Positions 1,684 through 13,557 of a stretch of DNA of 62,273 bases are shown piece after piece. Position 1 is the first letter of the stretch. Every line of letters begins with the position of its first letter. This DNA is from Vicinamibacteraceae bacterium. Lineage in GTDB: Bacteria > Acidobacteriota > Vicinamibacteria > Marinacidobacterales > Marinacidobacteraceae. A model generated the notes under the pieces. That model was not told the DNA's origin. It did no database searches and was given only the letters and a program-made list of their open reading frames with translations. Made by a program: the position numbers and the translations under genes. The stretch is taken from assembly GCA_012271265.1 (NCBI GenBank), contig JAAXGQ010000005.1, forward strand, positions 1 to 62,273, written 5' to 3'.

Positions 1684-2808
1684 GTGACCCTGACCTTGCT
1701 GCGGCGCGCGGTGCTCGCGGCGGGCGTGATCGCGATGGCCGCCTCGGCGCCAGCCGCCCAGATCCCCGAGGACGCCACGGCGGAGGACGGGTACACCGTG
1801 TGGCTGTGCCCGATGCACCGCGACCACCAGGCGCATGAAGAGGGACACTGTCCGCTCTGCGGGATGGCGCTGGTGCAACGCACCCTGGTGACCCGCTACG
1901 TGTGCCTCGGCGACGAGGACGGCGTGGTCGAGGAGGAGCCGGGCATCTGCCCGGACACCGGCGACCCGCTGGTTCCGGCGACCCGGGAGGTCGTTTGGTT
2001 CTGTCCCGATGCGCCGGACCGGTTCTTCGTGGAGCCCGGGACCTGCGCTTCCGGGGCGCCCCGCGACATGACCTCCCGCGTCTCCGAGCACGGCGACCAC
2101 AATCCGCGCCACGGTGGAATCCTGTTCATGGCGCCGGACGGCGTGCACCACCTCGAAGGCGCGCTCGAGGACGGCGCCTTCCGGCTCTACTTCTACGACT
2201 CGTTCACCCGCCCCGTCGAGCCGACTCCCTTCGCGGCGCGGGTCGTGGAGGCGGACGACCGGGGCGCGCCGATCGGCGAGCCGGTGACGCTTGCGGGGGG
2301 GGCGGACTTTCTCGAAGCCCCGTTTGCGACGGACCCCGAGGGGCGCTCGGCCTTCACCGCGTTCGTCCGCTTCCCCGAGACGCCGGAAACGGTCGGGGTC
2401 GAAGCGGAGCAGCGCTTCGACTTCATCTTCCTTTCGGAATCGGAGCGCGCGGCCCTCGCCGAGGCGGCCGGAACAGTGCGCGTGGCGGGGGGCCTGCCCG
2501 AGCTGCGCATCCCGGGAAGCGCCGAGGAGATCCTGCGCGAGATCCACGACCGGGACCGCCGGGTGCAGGCCCTGATCGAGGCGGGCCGCTGGGCCGACCT
2601 CTTCATCCCGGCGCTCGAAGCGAAGGACCTCGCCCTGGCCTACTCGGAGAAGGCCCCCGAGCCCCGGCCCTGGGCGGCCCTGAAGCAGATCGTGCGCGGC
2701 GCCTGGCTGCTCGACATGTACGGCGACCTGGGCGACCGCGTCCGGGTCGGGGAGGCGTACGTCATCTTCGCCGCCGGGATGGCGGGTCTGGCCGACGCGT
2801 CGCCGTAG
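1684..2808 (+). CDS. Secreted protein with heavy-metal-binding domain (CPMH...CPxCGM motif)
   Basis: GTG start and signal peptide MTLTLLRRAVLAAGVIAMAASAPAAQ. WLCPMHRDHQAHEEGHCPLCGMAL matches the HMBD found in CusB/CopA-type proteins, followed by two degenerate Cys-containing copies. Confidence 0.7.
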   Translation: MTLTLLRRAVLAAGVIAMAASAPAAQIPEDATAEDGYTVWLCPMHRDHQAHEEGHCPLCGMALVQRTLVTRYVCLGDEDGVVEEEPGICPDTGDPLVPATREVVWFCPDAPDRFFVEPGTCASGAPRDMTSRVSEHGDHNPRHGGILFMAPDGVHHLEGALEDGAFRLYFYDSFTRPVEPTPFAARVVEADDRGAPIGEPVTLAGGADFLEAPFATDPEGRSAFTAFVRFPETPETVGVEAEQRFDFIFLSESERAALAEAAGTVRVAGGLPELRIPGSAEEILREIHDRDRRVQALIEAGRWADLFIPALEAKDLALAYSEKAPEPRPWAALKQIVRGAWLLDMYGDLGDRVRVGEAYVIFAAGMAGLADASP

Positions 2809-2821
2809 CCCGGGGATCGCT

Positions 2822-4024
2822 GTGCCGACACCGACGAAGCGCCCCCCTCGGGCGCGGGAGTCGATCGGCTTCTTCGGCGGGGGCCTCGCGCTCGGAGCGC
2901 TGGGCTGGGTCTTCCTTTCGGCGCCGGACACCGCCTTCGAGGCAACCGCCCACGAGCCCGAACTCTCCCGCTTCACCTACTGGAAGGACATTCGCCCGCT
3001 CCTCGGCGAGCACTGCGCCGGGTGCCACGTCGGCAACAGCCCGGCGCCGGTGAACCTGATGCGCTACACGGAGGTGCTCCCGTGGGCGAACGCGATCGCC
3101 CGCCAGGTCCTGACGCGCCAGATGCCGCCGTGGCTCCCGGAGGACGGCGTGGGCGACCTGGCCCACGCGCGCACCCTTGACGAGCGGGAGACGAATCTGC
3201 TGGTGGACTGGGCGATCGGCCTCGCCCCCGAGGGCAGGCCCCCGGAGGAAGGCGCGGCCGCGCTGACAGACGCTGGGTCTGGGTCTCGGGCTGCGTTTGC
3301 GGACGACCTGCCCGCCACCCGGCTGCGCCTGGAAGCGCCGGTCGAGATCGGCGAGATGGAGTCCGAGGCCGCCCTCTGCCGGCCGCTCGTCCGGAGCGAG
3401 GGGGTCGGGACCGCCGCCTCCGGCTTCGAGCTGCTCCCCGGCGACGCCTGGCCGATCCTCCGCCGGGCCCGCGTGCTGATCGGAAACGGGTGCGAAACGG
3501 CAGTTCCGCTGTTTACGTGGGTGCCGGGGCAGGGGCGGCGCACCCGCCCTGACGGCGTCGTGGATCTGCTGCCGACGGGGTCGGGGCTCTTCCTGGAGCT
3601 GCGCTACCGCAAGAGCTTCGACACCGAGGGGCTCGGCTACGTGGACGCCCCGGAGATCGTCGTGTTCCCACCGGATCGTGCCGGCGGAGCGGTGGTCGAG
3701 ACCGTCGCCCTCGAACCCGGTGACAGCCGCCTTCCCGGCGCCGCTCTCCTCGCGGTGCTCCCGCCCGATGGTCTCGTCCTCGGCGATGAGGGGTTCGCCG
3801 TGCAGGCCGTGAGCGCGGACGGCGAGGTGGAGCCCCTCCTCCGCATCACCCGCTTCGACGAGGACTGGGCCGAGAAGTACGCCTTCCGCGCTCCCATCCG
3901 GCTCGACGCCGACATCTCGATCCGCGTCTCCCACCCCGGCGCCCTCGTCGACCTGATCCGCCCCGGCGGAGCGGCAGCCACCGGAGCCTCGTCGCCGTCC
4001 GGTCCGCGCCCCGAAGTCCCCTGA
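2822..4024 (+). CDS. Membrane-anchored or secreted protein with c-type haem-binding motif (PSCyt1-like N-terminal domain)
   Basis: 400-aa ORF with an N-terminal TM segment. WKDIRPLLGEHCAGCH contains CxxCH in a context resembling the planctomycete-type cytochrome c domain. The rest is unassigned. Confidence 0.6.
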   Translation: MPTPTKRPPRARESIGFFGGGLALGALGWVFLSAPDTAFEATAHEPELSRFTYWKDIRPLLGEHCAGCHVGNSPAPVNLMRYTEVLPWANAIARQVLTRQMPPWLPEDGVGDLAHARTLDERETNLLVDWAIGLAPEGRPPEEGAAALTDAGSGSRAAFADDLPATRLRLEAPVEIGEMESEAALCRPLVRSEGVGTAASGFELLPGDAWPILRRARVLIGNGCETAVPLFTWVPGQGRRTRPDGVVDLLPTGSGLFLELRYRKSFDTEGLGYVDAPEIVVFPPDRAGGAVVETVALEPGDSRLPGAALLAVLPPDGLVLGDEGFAVQAVSADGEVEPLLRITRFDEDWAEKYAFRAPIRLDADISIRVSHPGALVDLIRPGGAAATGASSPSGPRPEVP

Positions 4025-4076
4025 GCCGGTAGCACCCCGGGGCGACCGCCTCCGGGCAAGGGGAGCGAGCCGGCGG

Positions 4077-5200
4077 TCAGGCCGCTGGCGCGTGTTCCCG
4101 GATGTGGTCCATGAGGCTGGGGATGCCGGGCTCCCAGCGTGGATCCGCGCCGGACTGCCAGATGAACCCCAGGTGCCGCAGCGCCGGAGGGCTTCGGTTG
4201 CCTCGTCCCGGCCGGCGGTTCCGCCGTGGTGGGCGACAACGATCTGACGTAGCTCGGTAAGGGTCAGGGCGGGTCTTGCCGCGAAAGCGTCCGCGACGGC
4301 GCGCGCGACCTCGAGCTGGCCGCGCTCCTCGAGTTCGTTGAAGCGCTCCAGGTGGTACAGCTCCTTCCGCCAATCGAATTCCGGCTGCGCCGCTTCGGTG
4401 TCGTCGCGGCCTACGGACCCGCTCCCGCCCGCGACGGCCCGCTGCCAGACCAGGCTGCCCCAGAGCTGGAGGAAAAAGGGATACCCGTGGCTCTGACGAA
4501 CCATCCAGTCCAGAGTGCCTTCGGTCACGGCGATGTTGCTCTCGGTCAGGGGCCGACCGATGGCGGCGGCGCTGGACGCCGCATCGAGGCGATTGATCGG
4601 GAGCTGGTGGGCGCGAGGCCAGAAGGACGCGTCCATGCGGCTCAGACGGTTCCGCAGGTTCGGTGTCCCGGCGAGCACCAACAGGAACGGCAGTTCGCGG
4701 CCAACGACCTGACTCGCGTTCAGGAGGGCCCCTCCAACCTCCGGCGCCAGCGTATGCGCCTCATCCAGCAGAACGACAAGCGGCCTCCGACGGGCGCGCG
4801 CGGCGAGGATGTCCGTCGCCAGCGGCGCCCGCCGCCCGTGCCCGGGATGCCAGGTGATCCCCGCGACGGACACGTCTTCGGGGGTCAGGCCGGTCCACCA
4901 CGCCTCTGGCAGGAGCCGTTCCGCAAGCAGCGCGCCCGTTCCGATTTCCGAGGGCGTCAGGCGGACGGCCTCGACGTTCTCGCCGTTGGCGATTTCCTGC
5001 TGCAGCCAGACCAGCAGCGCCGTCTTTCCGTTGCCGCGCGGCCCGCAGAGAATGACTTCATTCGGCGGGGGAACGCCTCCCGCCATGGCTGCGATGCGCG
5101 TCCGGAAGAAGGCCTGTTCCCTCTCCCGATCGGCGAGGTAGGGCGGCAGTCCTCCCGTGCCGGGACGAAACGGCCCTTCTCCGACGATCGCTCCCGGCAT
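4077..5200 (-). pseudogene. P-loop (AAA/archaeal-type) ATPase, paralog of 12187..13311, disrupted by a 1-nt deletion near 4183
   Basis: Length is 1124 nt versus 1125 nt for the intact paralog. The N-terminal roughly 340 aa (GPRGNGKTALL Walker A, LLDEAH Walker B) lie in one frame. The conserved C-terminus LRHLGFIWQSG...PGIPSLM..REHAPA lies in another frame (ORF 4077..4373). Confidence 0.75.
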
Positions 5201-5282
5201 GCGGCCAGTTTAGGTTCGGCGTCGTTGCCGAGATGGCGCGGTGGCCGGTGAGACTCCGTAGCGTTCATCATAGGGAACACAA

Positions 5283-5654
5283 ATGGGTAGACTGTCCTCA
5301 ATACCAGACACCATGCCGTCCAAGCGCGACGCGACGCTGCCGCTTCCGGTCTTGCCCATGCTGCGGAAGCTGGGGGCGGATCTCCGGGACGCCCGCCGGC
5401 GCCGCCGAATCCCCACGGCGCTCATGGCCGAACGCGCCATGCTGAGCCGCACGACCCTCCACCGGATCGAACGAGGCGATCCGGGGGTCGGCGTCGGGAA
5501 CTACGCCCGCGTGCTTTTCGTGCTCGGCCTCCATCGGCGGCTCGGGGATCTGGCGGACCCGGGACAGGACGTCGTGGGGCTGGACCTCGAAGCCGAGCGG
5601 CTCCCCTCGCGCATCCACCTGCGCGACCGGCGGTTCGACGCGGAGGAGTCCTGA
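5283..5654 (+). CDS. hipB: XRE-family HTH antitoxin/regulator (HipB-like)
   Basis: HTH segment LRDARRRRRIPTALMAERAMLSRTTLHRIERGDP. The stop overlaps the hipA start. The true start could be the ATG at 5313. Confidence 0.75.
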   Translation: MGRLSSIPDTMPSKRDATLPLPVLPMLRKLGADLRDARRRRRIPTALMAERAMLSRTTLHRIERGDPGVGVGNYARVLFVLGLHRRLGDLADPGQDVVGLDLEAERLPSRIHLRDRRFDAEES

Positions 5655-6922
5655 TGGACCGCCGGGTGTTCGTCCATTGCGACGGAAGCGGGTTTCCGGG
5701 CCCGGTGGGACGGCTCTGGCTCCGCGTCCGGGGACATCGCGCGAGTGCGTCGTTCCTGTACGACCGCCGCTGGCTGCGACACCCGGGCCGTTTCGCGCTC
5801 GATCCGGCGCTACAGCCAGGCGTCGGCGCCTACCACACCGACCCCGGACGACCGTTGTTCGGGGCGTTCGACGACGCCGCCCCCGATCGCTGGGGGCGCA
5901 TGCTCCTGCGCCGCGCCGAACGCCGGAGCGCCCAGCGTGAGGGTCGGGTCCCCCGCGTCCTCACGGAAGGCGACTTCCTGCTCGGCGTGGACGACGAGGC
6001 GCGCCAGGGGGCGTTGCGGTTTCACGAAGCCCCGGAGGGGCCGTTCCTGGCCCCGCCGGCGCCCAACCGGGTTCCACCGCTGGTCGCGTTGCCGCGCCTG
6101 CTCGGCGCCGCCGAACGCGTGGTCGCCGCATCCGAAAGCGAGGAGGACCTGCGGCTGCTCCTCGCCCCCGGGGCGTCTCTCGGCGGCGCCCGGCCCAAGG
6201 CCTCGGTGCGCGACCGCGATGGGCGCCTCGCCCTGGCGAAGTTCCCGAAGGCCGACGATGCATGGGATGTCCCGCGTTGGGAGGCCGTTGGTCTCTCGCT
6301 CGCTCGCCGCGCCGGAATCCGAACGGCCGAGGCGCGCATCGCGCCGGTCGCGGGGAAGGGAGTCCTGGTCGTCCGTCGATTCGACCGGGCGGGTGACAGG
6401 CGCATTCCCTTCCTGTCCTCGATGACGTTGCTCGGCGCGTCCGACCGCGAGCCGCGCGCGTATCCCGAGATCGCGGAAGCCATCCGTCGCTACGGCGCGG
6501 CTCCGACGGACGATCTGGAGGAACTGTGGCGGCGCATCGTTTTCACCGTGCTGATCTCGAACCACGACGACCACCTTCGCAACCACGGATTCGTGCGCCT
6601 CGGCGACGGCGGCTGGCGTCTTTCTCCGGCGTACGACCTGAACCCCACCCCGGCGGAGTTCGGCGGCCGGACCCTGACCACCGCCATCGTCGAGGGCGAC
6701 CCCGGCGCCACTTGTGACCTCGCGTTCGAGACGGCTCCCTACTACGGAGTCTCACCATCGCGCGCCCGAGAGATCGCGGGGAAGGCCGCGGCGGCCGTGA
6801 GCCGCTGGCGCGACGAAGCGCGGCGCGTCGGCATCGGGCGTCCGGAGCAGGGACTCATGGCGTCCGCCTTCGAGCACCCGGAGCGCCAACGCCTCGCCCG
6901 GCTCCCGCGCTCGTCGAGGTGA
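5654..6922 (+). CDS. hipA: HipA-family serine/threonine kinase toxin (type II TA)
   Basis: 422 aa with the HipA N-terminal coupling region, SLGGARPKAS P-loop-like motif and LISNHDDHLRNHGF catalytic motif. Confidence 0.9.
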   Translation: MDRRVFVHCDGSGFPGPVGRLWLRVRGHRASASFLYDRRWLRHPGRFALDPALQPGVGAYHTDPGRPLFGAFDDAAPDRWGRMLLRRAERRSAQREGRVPRVLTEGDFLLGVDDEARQGALRFHEAPEGPFLAPPAPNRVPPLVALPRLLGAAERVVAASESEEDLRLLLAPGASLGGARPKASVRDRDGRLALAKFPKADDAWDVPRWEAVGLSLARRAGIRTAEARIAPVAGKGVLVVRRFDRAGDRRIPFLSSMTLLGASDREPRAYPEIAEAIRRYGAAPTDDLEELWRRIVFTVLISNHDDHLRNHGFVRLGDGGWRLSPAYDLNPTPAEFGGRTLTTAIVEGDPGATCDLAFETAPYYGVSPSRAREIAGKAAAAVSRWRDEARRVGIGRPEQGLMASAFEHPERQRLARLPRSSR

Positions 6923-6937
6923 ACCTCTTCCCGACGA

Positions 6938-6973
6938 TGCGGCGCAGGCCGGCGAGGACGCCGGTGCTCCATG
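6938..6973. repeat. Solo REP-like palindromic element
   Basis: tgcggcgcaggccggcgaggacgccggtgctccatgg lies just downstream of hipA and belongs to the same family as 1-290 and 11050-11642. Confidence 0.8.
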
Positions 6974-7071
6974 GCCGCGTTCGGCGTTTGGCCGGCAGCC
7001 CCTCGCTCACTCTTGAGCGACAGATTTCGTCGTGGGGTTCGGGTATCGTGAATCCCTTGGACCTTTTCTGA

Positions 7072-10862
<3,791 letters not shown>

Positions 10863-11049
10863 GGGAAGCGACCAGCCGGTGCTGGTCGTCGTGGGTGTGA
10901 CCAGAGAGCCGGAGCAGGCCTGCCAGCAGCCGAGCGTCGCCCCGGAGGCTGGCTCGACGCTGTCCCGGGCGGCCTCAATCCGGCGCTCCCGCTCTCCATA
11001 CCGCTTCCTCAAGAGCGGACATTTTCGGTTGACATTGACAGCGTCGGCC

Positions 11050-11642
11050 CCATGGAGCGCCGGTGCCCTCACCGGCCACCGGCGCAGGCGGGGATGGACC
11101 GTGGGCGTTGGGGTGCACGGTCGGTCGGCACGTCGGCGTGGTGGGTAGGGGCTTGCGGTGCGCGGCAGGCCGGCGAGGACGCCGGCGCTCCATGGTGCCG
11201 GCGCTCGATGGGGGTCGGCGGTCGATAGGTCGACGCGCGCAGTTCTGGAGCGCCGGCGTCCTCGCCGGCCACGTTCTGGAGCGCCGGTGTCCTCACCGGC
11301 CAGCGGCGCCGGCAGGGATGGACCGTGGGCTTTCCGGCGGACGGTCGGTCGGCACGTCGTCGCGGTTGGCAGGAGGCTGCGGGGCGGCGCAGGCCGGCGA
11401 GGACGCCGGCGCTCCATGGTGCGGCGCTCGATGGTGCGGCGGTCGAAAGGTCAGGGCGCGCAGCCCTGGAGCGCCGGAGTCCTCACCGGGCACTGCACCG
11501 GGAGCGCCGGTGTCCTCACCGGCCACCGCCGCAGGCGGGCATGGTCCGTGGGCCTCCCGCCCCACGGTCGGTCGGCATGGCGCCGCTGTCGGTAGGAGAC
11601 TGCGGTGAGGCTCAGGCCGGCGAGGACGCCGGCGCTCCATGG
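11050..11642. repeat. Three tandem copies (about 224-bp period) of a MITE-like unit bounded by about 28-bp inverted REP arms
   Basis: Left arm ccatggagcgccggtg.cctcaccggcc and right arm ggccggcgaggacgccggcgctccatgg are reverse complements. Right arms end at 11195, 11419 and 11642. The conserved core is ggatggaccgtgggc...acggtcggtcggca. Units 2 and 3 carry an extra left arm. Confidence 0.85.
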
Positions 11643-11683
11643 GGCCGGCGTCCTCGCCGTCCTGCCCTTCTCCCGCCTTCAGG

Positions 11684-11767
11684 CTCATTTCCCCAGCTCC
11701 GAGTCTCATTTACCCAGCTCCGAGTCTCATTTACCCAGCTCTGGGTCTTATTTCCCCAGCTCCGGCA
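11684..11767 (+). repeat. Array A of 21-bp direct repeats (4 copies), iteron-like
   Basis: ctcatttccccagctccgagt / ctcatttacccagctccgagt / ctcatttacccagctctgggt / cttatttccccagctccggca. Locally AT-rich in a GC-rich genome. Confidence 0.9.
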
Positions 11768-11997
11768 GGTCCAGCCCCGGATCCGGGCCAGATTGCGGCG
11801 CCGTGTCCCAGCCGTCATCGAGGGGATCTTCCGTCTCGAACCCGCGCCGAAACCGGGGAGGAAAACCGGTCGAAACCGGCGCCCGGCGGTCGAATCGCCG
11901 GTCTTCTCGCACGCAGCGGGCGAAATGCGGGGGCGGCGTGGAACATTCCTTCATCGAGCGCCGGCGTCCTCGCCGGCCTGCCCTTCTCCCCGTTTTC

Positions 11998-12102
11998 GCG
12001 CTTATTTCCCCGGCTCCGGCGCTATTTCCCCAGCTCCAGGCGTTATTTGTCCAGCTCCGCCGTTATTTACCCAGCTCCGGGCGCTATTTCCCCAGCTCCC
12101 GA
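11998..12102 (+). repeat. Array B of 21-bp direct repeats (5 copies), same family as array A, about 85 bp upstream of the ATPase gene
   Basis: The core (c/t)tATTT(c/a)CCCAGCTCCg repeats every 21 nt. It is preceded by the same leader (ccggcgtcctcgccg.cctgcccttctccc) as array A. Confidence 0.9.
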
Positions 12103-12186
12103 TTCTGACGCGGAGCCGGCGCCGCCCATGGAATAGCGGGCCGCGGTGGCCGGCAGCGGGGCGGTTGCGAGCCCTACACTTGCGTC

Positions 12187-13311
12187 ATGGCCAAGGTGGC
12201 GATCGGGGAAGGGCCATTTCGCCCCGGGACGGGGAGGCTGCCGCCCTGGCTCGCCGGCCGCGATGCCGAGAAGAGCTTTTTCCGCGCCCGGATCGCAGCC
12301 ATGGCCGCGGGTGTTCCTCCGCCGAGCGACGTCATCCTCTACGGACCGCGCGGCAACGGAAAGACGGCCCTGCTTGTCTGGCTCGACCGGGAGATCGCTT
12401 CGACCGCCGGAGTCGAATCGGTCCGCCTGACGCCTTCCGAGATCCCGACGGAGGCGAAGCTGGCGGAGCGCCTGCTCCCCGACACCTGGTGGAAGAGCGT
12501 GAAGCCCGACGACATTTCCGTCGCGGGGATCACCTGGCGGCCCGGCGGCGCGCGGCCCGTTCCGGCAGCGCGGCAGGTTCTCTCCGCGCGCACCGGAAGG
12601 AAACCGCTCGTCCTGCTGCTGGACGAAGCGCACACGCTCTCTCCCGAAGTCGGACAATCGCTCTTGAACGCCAGTCAGCTGGTCGGGGCCGAGCTCCCCT
12701 TTCTGCTGGTGCTGGCCGGAACCCCGGACCTCCGGCATCGGCTGAGCCGCATGAGCGCGTCCTTCTGGAGTCGCGCCCACCAGGTCCCGGTCAACCGGCT
12801 CGGCGGCGAGGACAGCGCCGCCGCCATCCTGAAGCCGTTCGCGCACGAAGGGATCGCGGTGGCCCCGGACGCCCTGGAGCGTATCCTGAAGCACAGCCAC
12901 GGCTATCCGTTCTTCCTCCAGCTCTGGGGCAGCCTCGTCTGGCGGCGCGCCGCCGGCTCCGGCAGCGGGTCCGTGACCCGTGAGCACGCCGAAGCGGCGC
13001 AAACCGAGTTCGCGTTCCGCCAGGGCCTCTACTACCTCGATCGCTTCAACGAACTGGAGGACCTCGACCTGCTGCCGGCGGCCCGCGCCGTCGCGGACGC
13101 CTTCGTCCGGCAGCCGGCCGTTCCCTACGGCGCGCTGCGGGAAGCCGTGCTCCCGCGACTCGGAAACGGGGCCGGCCGGGAGGACGCGAATGCGGCGCTC
13201 CGGACCCTGCGCCATCTCGGGTTCATCTGGCAGTCCGGCCCGGTCCCTCTCTGGGAGCCGGGCATTCCCAGCCTGATGCGCTACGTCCGGGAGCACGCGC
13301 CGGCGGGGTAA
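12187..13311 (+). CDS. P-loop (AAA/archaeal-type) ATPase with C-terminal winged-helix-like region, intact paralog of 4077..5200
   Basis: 374 aa. Walker A GPRGNGKTALL, Walker B LLLDEAH, and conserved HGYPFFLQLWG and HLGFIWQSG segments. Confidence 0.85.
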   Translation: MAKVAIGEGPFRPGTGRLPPWLAGRDAEKSFFRARIAAMAAGVPPPSDVILYGPRGNGKTALLVWLDREIASTAGVESVRLTPSEIPTEAKLAERLLPDTWWKSVKPDDISVAGITWRPGGARPVPAARQVLSARTGRKPLVLLLDEAHTLSPEVGQSLLNASQLVGAELPFLLVLAGTPDLRHRLSRMSASFWSRAHQVPVNRLGGEDSAAAILKPFAHEGIAVAPDALERILKHSHGYPFFLQLWGSLVWRRAAGSGSGSVTREHAEAAQTEFAFRQGLYYLDRFNELEDLDLLPAARAVADAFVRQPAVPYGALREAVLPRLGNGAGREDANAALRTLRHLGFIWQSGPVPLWEPGIPSLMRYVREHAPAG

Positions 13312-13394: not shown

Positions 13395-13486
13395 GAGATT
13401 CCCGCTCGGCAGGAGATTCCCGCTCGGCAGGAGACTCGCGCTCGGCAGGAGACTCGCGCTCCGCGGGGGGACTCGCATTCCGCGCG
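13395..13486 (+). repeat. 18-bp direct repeat array (about 5 copies, decaying)
   Basis: gagattcccgctcggcag x2, gagactcgcgctcggcag, gagactcgcgctccgcgg, then a degenerate copy. Lies between convergent genes. Confidence 0.85.
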
Positions 13487-13557
13487 GGCGCAACCCCGGC
13501 CGGAGGGCAGGGGGGATGCTGCGGGCCGGGGTGCGCCGACCCGCAGCAAGGGGGGGC

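Follow-up and report, generated by a model that had tools for sequence, protein, structure and literature searches.

A probable mosaic of toxin–antitoxin, restriction–modification, repeat and ATPase modules at a variable junction in a Vicinamibacteraceae genome

This study concerns a 62,273-nt stretch of DNA from a Vicinamibacteraceae bacterium (contig JAAXGQ010000005.1), referred to here, at its full length, as the window and used as the frame for all coordinates. Positions 4077–13311 of the window (~9 kb) hold, in this order, an ATPase gene on the minus strand (ATPase1), hipB–hipA, a gene for a 998-aa methyltransferase (MTase) fusion, phd–vapC, 1.3 kb of repeats, and a second ATPase gene on the plus strand (ATPase2). 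We consider it likely that this island is a mosaic of autonomous toxin–antitoxin (TA), restriction–modification (RM), repeat and ATPase modules, which would have been built up stepwise at a variable junction between a gene for a 400-aa protein (p400) and a TPR/Bat operon. The window has a GC content of 72%, which crowds six-frame lists of open reading frames (ORFs) with spurious frames; genes were selected by third-position GC together with domain matches. All genes named in a preliminary description of this DNA were recovered, at the same positions, by ORF and domain searches (Table 1), and Rfam and tRNA scans matched nothing in the island, their sole matches being two tRNAs at 39.7 and 48.8 kb.

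The junction and its flanks in relatives

Orthologs of p400, 52–64% identical, lie in the same SDR–YbaK–HMBD–p400 context in relatives; several genomes have both such an ortholog and one of the nearest relatives of the MTase. One of these arrangements (L115; comparison loci carry L numbers) runs SDR, YbaK-like, HMBD, p400, a 387-nt gap, TPR, MoxR, DUF58, VWA and BatD, that is, the exact flanks of the window with nothing in between. Since the flanks are only 387 nt apart there, the island is a true insertion at a variable junction. L116 has a different right flank at the p400 junction, and in L117 the HMBD–p400 block is inverted (L117 7071–13525 versus L115 7539–13128) and accompanied by an extra 313-aa gene, the TPR–MoxR–DUF58–VWA–BatD order being common to L115 and L117. 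Taken together, the three arrangements identify 4077–13311 as lineage-specific DNA at a rearrangement-prone junction, and the inversion of the HMBD–p400 block between two relatives points to a general rearrangement hotspot in the lineage. The preliminary description had taken the segment, which carries genes of addiction and defence types but no housekeeping gene, for a discrete accessory island and had proposed that its presence be compared among relatives. That comparison bears out the island: it is absent from L115, where the flanks abut, and the junction differs in L116 and L117.

Direct or inverted repeats of at least 10 nt bounding the island, a target-site duplication and att-like repeats were sought at its ends, and none was found; likewise, the ORF lists and the domain search reveal no recombinase (invertase, integrase or transposase) ORF within it. 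Because bounding repeats and a recombinase are both lacking, stepwise accretion is likelier than a single insertion event.

Gene neighbourhoods

If the genes of the island formed one system, they would be expected to travel together. We gathered 83 loci of the MTase family, each with ±10 kb of flank, and searched them by tblastn with the window proteins. Near the MTase, a HipA match was found in 1 of these loci, Phd/VapC matches in 2 and ATPase-family matches in 3. All-versus-all clustering of the ORFs from the 83 loci brought out no recurrent neighbour, the only shared clusters being generic housekeeping families, and the ~27 loci examined for the ATPase family have no conserved partner, their neighbours being mostly metabolic or housekeeping genes. 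The nearest relative of the MTase (L001; 88% identity, 72% GC) shares with the 62-kb window only the MTase, phd and the start of vapC.

Two of the loci deserve description in their own right. At L001 6130–7518, the MTase and phd are separated by the inserted gene of a 462-aa ATPase of the PF01637/DUF234 type; this protein belongs to the structural class of the window ATPases and is unrelated to them in sequence, and vapC is apparently fragmented there. In a Longimicrobiales metagenome-assembled genome (MAG; L012 2515–22308), an ATPase-family gene, two PIN-type TA pairs, AbiE-like genes, an IS3-type transposase, a member of the MTase family and another DNA MTase lie within 20 kb, forming a second, differently assembled TA/RM island; assignments in L012 beyond ATPase, MTase, Phd and VapC were made from inspection of N-terminal sequences only.

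Tests for BREX, Pgl and MADS

The neighbourhoods bear directly on a suggestion made in the preliminary description, namely that kinase, MTase and ATPases act together in a manner reminiscent of Pgl/BREX (bacteriophage exclusion) type 2. In its broader form, the HipA kinase, the MTase and the ATPases would constitute one undescribed methylation-based defence system related either to Pgl/BREX type 2 or to the methylation-associated defence system (MADS). The combination of kinase, MTase and ATPase does recall both Pgl and MADS, the latter with genes for a kinase and a methylase in its operon (preprint 10.1101/2023.03.30.534895), and hipBA and the MTase gene share a strand. The best PADLOC match of the 998-aa protein is mad2 (1.4e-10), as it is for 39 of 40 of its homologs; 8 of 31 ATPase homologs weakly match mad8 (best E 0.0012); and PglX/BrxX structures are strong fold matches of the 998-aa protein. 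The mad2 match, however, covers the MTase core only (residues 304–643), the protein reaches 14.9 bits with the NCBIfam MAD2 model (NF047738), whose cutoff is 720, and the window's own ATPases do not match mad8 at E ≤ 0.01. The PADLOC PglX model reaches E values of 1e-4 to 3e-3 over ~60 residues of the 998-aa protein, and in the fold search BrxX/PglX (1.6e-11) is surpassed by BpuSI. No island protein matches PglZ, PglW, PglY/BrxC or MAD6–8 in Pfam, NCBIfam or PADLOC (E ≤ 0.01 for PADLOC mad6–8), in agreement with the earlier remark that PglZ is absent. In the model of the MADS authors, MAD6, MAD7 and MAD8 are mandatory (preprint 10.1101/2023.03.30.534895); a MADS assignment on the strength of the mad2 and mad8 matches was rejected, as these three proteins are absent and MAD2 falls far below its NCBIfam cutoff.

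Against a joint system stand also the genomes themselves: of the 83 MTase loci, a single one has HipA nearby and 3 have the ATPase; the 88% MTase ortholog in L001 has neither hipBA nor a window-type ATPase; and within the island hipA and the MTase gene are set apart by 198 nt of spacer, which contains a repetitive extragenic palindromic (REP) element. The preliminary description had itself named lack of co-occurrence in other genomes as the result that would speak against joint action, and the 83 MTase loci and the ~27 ATPase loci give that result, with no conserved partner in either set. We therefore judge a joint kinase–MTase–ATPase system extremely unlikely.

Table 1. Features of the island and of its immediate flanks, in window coordinates
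Feature	Position	Strand	Description
p400 (left conserved flank)	2822–4024	+	400 aa, without Pfam domain; preceded by HMBD-domain gene
ATPase1	5200→4077	-	AAA_22 2.3e-8; Walker A GPRGNGKT and Walker B LLDEAH intact
hipB-like HTH antitoxin	5283–5654	+	123 aa; HTH_31 4.7e-6
hipA Ser/Thr kinase toxin	5654–6922	+	422 aa; HipA_C 8e-48; weak Couple_hipA N-domain match
REP-like hairpin, single, in hipA/MTase spacer	6947–6970	+	24-nt REP motif with 1 mismatch
998-aa Type IIG/IIL-like enzyme	7121–10117	+	motif I, IMNPPF; predicted fold
phd/yefM-family antitoxin	10204–10449	+	81 aa; PhdYeFM_antitox (PF02604) 2.7e-12; TIGR01552 2.8e-10
vapC PIN-domain toxin	10446–10862	+	138 aa; PIN (PF01850) 1.8e-9
Gene-free repeat block	10863–12186	.	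1.3 kb
Inverted REP doublet array (REPIN/BIME-like)	11040–11650	.	223-nt unit ×2.7
Two 21-nt direct-repeat arrays	11684–12100	+	4 copies at 11684–11764; 5 copies at 11998–12100
ATPase2	12187–13311	+	374 aa, intact; AAA_16 8e-9, AAA_22 1.9e-8
18-nt tandem repeat	13395–13488	+	~4.7 copies, in ATPase2/TPR spacer
TPR gene (right conserved flank)	15174→13558	-	538 aa; MoxR/DUF58/VWA/BatD operon next

The 998-aa enzyme

The largest gene of the island encodes a protein that no Pfam or NCBIfam model matches at threshold. Its family comprises more than 3000 full-length homologs, nearly all unnamed or labelled hypothetical; sub-threshold profile matches are to Eco57I, N6_Mtase and MmeI_Mtase, and PADLOC also returns MTase_II and REase_MTase_IIG. 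An AlphaFold model built from 40 homologs (pLDDT 82.6, pTM 0.85) consists of an N-terminal α/β domain (1–150), a helical connector (155–345), a Rossmann MTase domain (350–650), and a β-rich region (655–865), predicted to serve in target recognition, followed by helices. Searched against the PDB, this model is best matched by the type IIG enzyme BpuSI (4e-16), then by BrxX/PglX, DrdV (Type IIL) and adenine MTases; the BpuSI match refers to the whole chain, and the Foldseek output comes without per-domain alignment. Among the 40 homologs (49–89% identity), P44 and D45, E59-x-E61, motif I (359–368) and IMNPPF (500–505) are invariant. Motif I precedes motif IV (NPPF), the order of γ-class N6-adenine MTases, and P44, D45, E59 and E61 sit on predicted β strands of the α/β N-domain.

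Read from its predicted fold and its motifs, the protein would be a self-contained, single-chain Type IIG/IIL-like RM enzyme. Its C-terminal recognition region would read a DNA site, its NPPF MTase would mark host adenines using S-adenosylmethionine, and its N-terminal PD...ExE domain would cut unmarked incoming DNA. The β-rich region C-terminal to the MTase fits a target-recognition domain, and the lack of a conserved neighbour in the 83 loci fits operation from a single gene.

As regards the nuclease, a profile of 13 N-domains run against PDB and Pfam returned noise only, leaving a nuclease unrecognised by sequence profiles, and this counts against the reading, as does the nature of the assignment, which we infer from fold, motif and architecture. 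The third catalytic position, moreover, carries Glu and not the canonical Lys; BREX PglX/BrxX proteins, which depend on partners for restriction, are strong fold matches as well; and several copies of the gene can occur in one genome. All of these features would suit a solitary orphan or regulatory DNA MTase whose N-domain is not an active nuclease and which does not restrict. We nevertheless regard such an orphan MTase as unlikely: P44, D45, E59 and E61 do not vary among the 40 homologs, and their placement on predicted strands resembles that in PD-(D/E)xK nucleases; the best whole-chain fold match is BpuSI, itself a nuclease–MTase–target-recognition enzyme; and strong conservation of the ~150 aa of the N-domain, in a gene that stands alone, speaks for its being functional. 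A D...ExE variant of the nuclease catalytic residues is found in BamHI.

Carriers of the family among species-representative genomes are overwhelmingly MAGs from sponge and marine-holobiont projects, and among them are Acidobacteriota, Latescibacterota, Chloroflexota, Gemmatimonadota, Actinomycetota, Alpha- and Gammaproteobacteria and Cyanobacteria. Up to four copies are present in some genomes, and several others hold two. One Hyphomonadaceae MAG (OZ253505.1; L033, L050, L062 and L083) has four diverged copies, 40–42% identical to the query, which looks like diversification of specificities.

Relatives of the enzyme also turn up on replicons and in contexts of other kinds. Five contigs classed as viral in IMG/VR (L120–L124) carry full-length relatives of 37–42% identity. 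On a Nitrosospira plasmid (L127; NZ_AP024517.1 38455–41388), a relative lies beside a type IV secretion operon, in a stretch without an annotated gene. At L002 9205–15341, a DUF5131 (phage gp37-like) gene stands directly upstream of an MTase homolog, and 1.4 kb downstream of that homolog lie a second DUF5131 gene and a 160-aa C-terminal MTase fragment. COG4422 (gp37) has been described as sponge-enriched (PMC5649159).

The ATPases

More than 2500 homologs, ~375 aa long, make up the family to which ATPase1 and ATPase2 belong; a contig often carries several of its genes, and L086 has five in tandem. The AlphaFold model of ATPase2 (pLDDT 89.3) displays an AAA+ core, a lid and a C-terminal winged helix. 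Its fold matches include origin-DNA-bound Orc1/Cdc6 (2qby_A, 2.5e-11), and its best global matches are archaeal PF01637-type proteins (2qen, TM 0.62/0.65; 2fna, TM 0.58/0.61). At the sequence level, the ATPases score 20.8 bits with TIGR02928 against a threshold of 181.3, do not match PF01637, and yield nothing significant with PADLOC. The model suggests that they are Orc1/Cdc6-like AAA+ proteins capable of ATP-dependent DNA binding. A plasmid search returned relatives of ~29% identity, solitary "ATP-binding proteins" with uninformative neighbours, and a scan of viral contigs for the family returned 0 loci.

The two genes, which the preliminary description had portrayed as outward-pointing paralogs, roughly two-thirds to three-quarters identical, do point outward, and their similarity runs from ATG to stop codon, with 72% identity in DNA and 65% in protein (ATPase1 repaired). 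The repair concerns a 1-nt deletion relative to ATPase2 at ~4183, ~35 codons before the stop and the only gap in the alignment: as written, ATPase1 is frameshifted, its last ~35 codons being out of frame, and it is probably either a pseudogene or the product of an assembly indel. Past the deletion, the shifted frame remains open for ~1.4 kb more (ORF 2762–5200), antisense through p400. The public gene call on a 100%-identical contig (L084) is an antisense 299-aa ORF (4352–5251) and not ATPase1.

Could the two genes be the arms of an invertible or mobile segment? The preliminary description had raised this possibility, and homologous inverted arms of 1.1 kb do stand precisely at the island ends, where they might mediate a shufflon- or phase-variation-like inversion of 7 kb or form the ends of a composite mobile element; the inverted HMBD–p400 block in L117 shows that the neighbourhood does rearrange. 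The arms themselves argue otherwise. Their longest exact shared run, in the Walker A region, is 23 nt, and at 72% DNA identity homologous recombination between them is improbable, judged from their sequences. Repaired ATPase1 is closer to P0124 (73%), and also to P0123 and P0122, all from other assemblies, than to ATPase2 (65%); the two are thus old paralogs and not the outcome of a recent inverted duplication. P0124 and P0126 are encoded elsewhere, at a conserved site that follows a peptidase S9 gene, and in L087 and L118 the ATPase lies at another locus than in the window, without MTase or HipA. A composite transposon or invertible segment is recognised by near-identical inverted copies, a recombinase and a target-site duplication; here the copies are diverged, and the island has neither an invertase, integrase or transposase ORF nor a target-site duplication or terminal repeats. 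In a second sample, contig L085 spans the ATPase2 side only and shows the window arrangement there, which is weak evidence; no other ATPase locus examined has cargo bracketed in this way. Inversion or mobilization through the arms thus appears very unlikely. Within the mosaic, the flanking ATPases would be separate, anciently diverged members of a scattered, tandemly amplified Orc1/Cdc6-like family without a conserved partner.

One gene cluster recurs next to family members elsewhere. In L086 (906–12468) and L129–L131 (1–6119), genes for four membrane or coiled-coil proteins without Pfam domain (~478, 290, 420 and 400 aa) directly precede ATPase genes, one in L129–L131 and the five tandem ones in L086. 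The cluster could be a separate system or mere shared synteny of relatives; as a general partner of the ATPases it was rejected, being absent from the window and from other ATPase loci.

Toxin–antitoxin pairs

Both TA pairs have the features of type II modules. In the first, one operon joins an HTH antitoxin gene to the HipA_C kinase gene downstream of it, the hipB stop overlapping the hipA start (ATGA); the hipB-like protein matches TIGR03070 (couple_hipB) at 4.8e-5, below cutoff, and the HipA translation contains a catalytic-loop-like NHDDHLRN and a YDLNP motif. HipA kinases halt growth through the phosphorylation of a translation factor (an aminoacyl-tRNA synthetase, for example); HipB counteracts HipA and represses the operon. 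The window pair would be expected to act as such a type II module. In the second, a Phd/YefM antitoxin gene precedes a PIN toxin gene that it overlaps by 4 nt, and the pair would pit the antitoxin against a PIN RNase. The phd ortholog in L001 is 88% identical and lies near the MTase ortholog; because both genes are ~88% conserved and neighbouring there, phd–vapC appears to have travelled with the RM gene.

Repeats

The gene-free block between vapC and ATPase2 would be a pile-up of species-specific REP/REPIN-type hairpins together with two 21-nt arrays. A 24-nt motif, GGCCGGCGAGGACGCCGGCGCTCC, has a 6-bp stem closed by a 4-nt loop. The expected number of copies in the window is 0, and the number present is 14: one at 6947, nine at 11054–11978 and four at 35–250. 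These last four, all direct and spaced by ~77 nt, are found at the left edge of the window, upstream of the SDR gene; between 13.5 and 62 kb the motif has no match even when 3 mismatches are tolerated. In the block, the motif forms inverted doublets with arms of 25–47 nt, 72 nt apart, which build a 223-nt unit repeated 2.7 times (Tandem Repeats Finder, TRF; 84% matches), and one such unit folds at −63.9 kcal/mol (z = −5.25 versus shuffled sequence). Noncoding palindromic repeats, arranged as inverted doublets that fold as hairpins, are what defines REP/REPIN sequences. No RAYT transposase turned up, and a PF01797 search of the remaining window or genome was not made. The preliminary description had placed REP elements at the internal junctions of the island. 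This holds for the hipA/MTase (6947–6970) and vapC/ATPase2 junctions, and the ATPase1/hipB and MTase/phd junctions are without REP.

Beside the doublets, the 21-nt direct repeat has the core TATTTCCCCAGCTCCG, and each of its two arrays is preceded by a REP half-site and CTGCCCTTCTCCC; the 16-nt core of the repeat is present in 9 copies against 0.37 expected. Among the loci fetched for comparison, both the 21-nt repeat and the exact 22-nt core of the REP motif are confined to same-species contigs. An iteron- or origin-like function of the 21-nt arrays as a feature of the ATPase family was rejected, as TRF applied to the 800 nt upstream of ~30 ATPase-family genes detected no comparable arrays. 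Beyond the end of the segment as first delimited, an extra 18-nt tandem array (GAGACTCCCGCTCGGCAG, ~4.7 copies; 13395–13488) separates ATPase2 from the TPR gene, which is convergent with it.

Weighing the mosaic

Several observations count against the mosaic or against what we attach to it. The borders of the island fall precisely at the 3′ termini of the two ATPase genes, an agreement for which stepwise accretion offers no specific reason. In 3 other loci, no more than 10 kb lies between an ATPase-family gene and the MTase; hipBA adjoins an ATPase gene in L107, and a phd–PIN pair lies directly upstream of one in L087. PIN proteins account for 3 of 45 ORFs neighbouring ATPase genes and for at most 1 of 148 control ORFs, taken around arbitrary anchors in 53 comparable loci, a comparison with a small sample and a crude control. 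The sponge-symbiont origin, finally, is read from the sources of homologs and not from the window itself.

Some of these adjacencies could reflect a functional coupling of the ATPases to the TA module next to them, ATPase1 to hipBA and ATPase2 to phd–vapC, for instance as a third-component regulator, sensor or loader, in which case the island would comprise two ATPase–TA units plus an RM gene. The adjacencies are independent and non-orthologous: a phd–PIN pair in L087 (58-nt gap), an RHH–PIN pair upstream in L097, a PIN gene in L090, and ATPase–hipB–hipA all on one strand in L107; in L001 a different, PF01637-type ATPase adjoins phd–vapC, and the controls over which PIN genes were in excess came from similar genomes. 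Most ATPase loci, however, have no TA neighbour, and the five-gene tandem arrays are without any TA; the orientation and order of the genes are inconsistent (divergent, upstream, downstream); 1.3 kb of repeats separates vapC from ATPase2 in the window; and, beyond the few loci and the crude control, TA and accessory genes both gather in variable regions. Such coupling strikes us as rather improbable, and we grant similarly little probability to the wider proposal that the ATPase family represents an undescribed DNA-sensing NTPase, stand-alone or TA-coupled, in conflicts with mobile elements, a proposal for which its more than 2500 members, its up to five-fold tandem arrays, its recurrent PIN/HipA TA adjacency and its occurrence mainly in sponge-microbiome assemblies may provide a basis. 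If it were true, two ATPase–TA units would flank a new, horizontally shared Type IIG-like family typical of sponge symbionts. We continue to favour the mosaic of autonomous modules.

Implications

The host, with its ~72% GC, is most likely a marine sponge symbiont, to judge by the genomes in which related sequences occur. Sponge symbionts are enriched in RM and TA genes (PMC5649159, PMC5099237), and an accretion of TA and RM modules at a variable junction matches this published enrichment; as a system, the island would be ordinary. The presence of kinase, MTase and ATPase genes side by side is, without co-occurrence data, no evidence of a BREX-like system. Two of the building blocks seem to come from large uncharacterised families typical of sponge microbiomes. 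The 998-aa family, with more than 3000 members that lack Pfam or NCBIfam annotation, spread over at least 10 phyla of sponge-associated bacteria and often multicopy, is a candidate for a shared restriction barrier and a possible source of new specificities. The large Orc1/Cdc6-like ATPase family is amplified in the same sponge-associated communities.

Comparison with known systems

The hipBA and phd/yefM–vapC pairs share with known type II modules the canonical domains, sizes, antitoxin-first order and stop/start overlap; the departures from known hipBA are not notable, namely a hipB-like protein on the long side (123 aa) and a HipA that lies above no NCBIfam equivalog cutoff. The repeats resemble REP/REPIN/BIME elements in their short GC-rich hairpin (CCGGCG-AGGA-CGCCGG core), intergenic only here, clustered and arranged as inverted doublets, whereas 21-nt direct-repeat arrays beside the REPs are not a described REP feature.

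With BREX/Pgl and MADS the island has in common a large adenine MTase of PglX-like fold, whose best PADLOC match is mad2, and a kinase and P-loop ATPases nearby; unlike BREX/Pgl, it is without PglZ, BrxC/PglY and PglW and, unlike MADS, without MAD6–8, its kinase is a HipA with its own HipB antitoxin, and its genes do not co-occur in other genomes. The ATPases are akin to Orc1/Cdc6 and to archaeal PF01637 ATPase_2 proteins (2qby, 2qen, 2fna), with which they share an AAA+ core with Walker A and B motifs, a lid, a winged helix and similar length (TM 0.5–0.65); in contrast to Orc1/Cdc6, the family is bacterial, multi-copy and tandemly amplified, with no origin association.

The 998-aa protein, finally, shares with the Type IIG/IIL enzymes BpuSI, MmeI, DrdV and Eco57I-like proteins a length of ~1000 aa, a stand-alone gene and the same predicted order of parts, namely a putative PD-(D/E)xK-like N-domain, a helical connector, a γ-class MTase with NPPF and a recognition domain. 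It is, however, only ~11–14% identical to the solved enzymes, is matched by no curated profile at threshold, and carries PD...ExE, not ExK, at the putative catalytic site, and its family, unlike known Type IIG/IIL enzymes, is concentrated in sponge-symbiont MAGs from many phyla.

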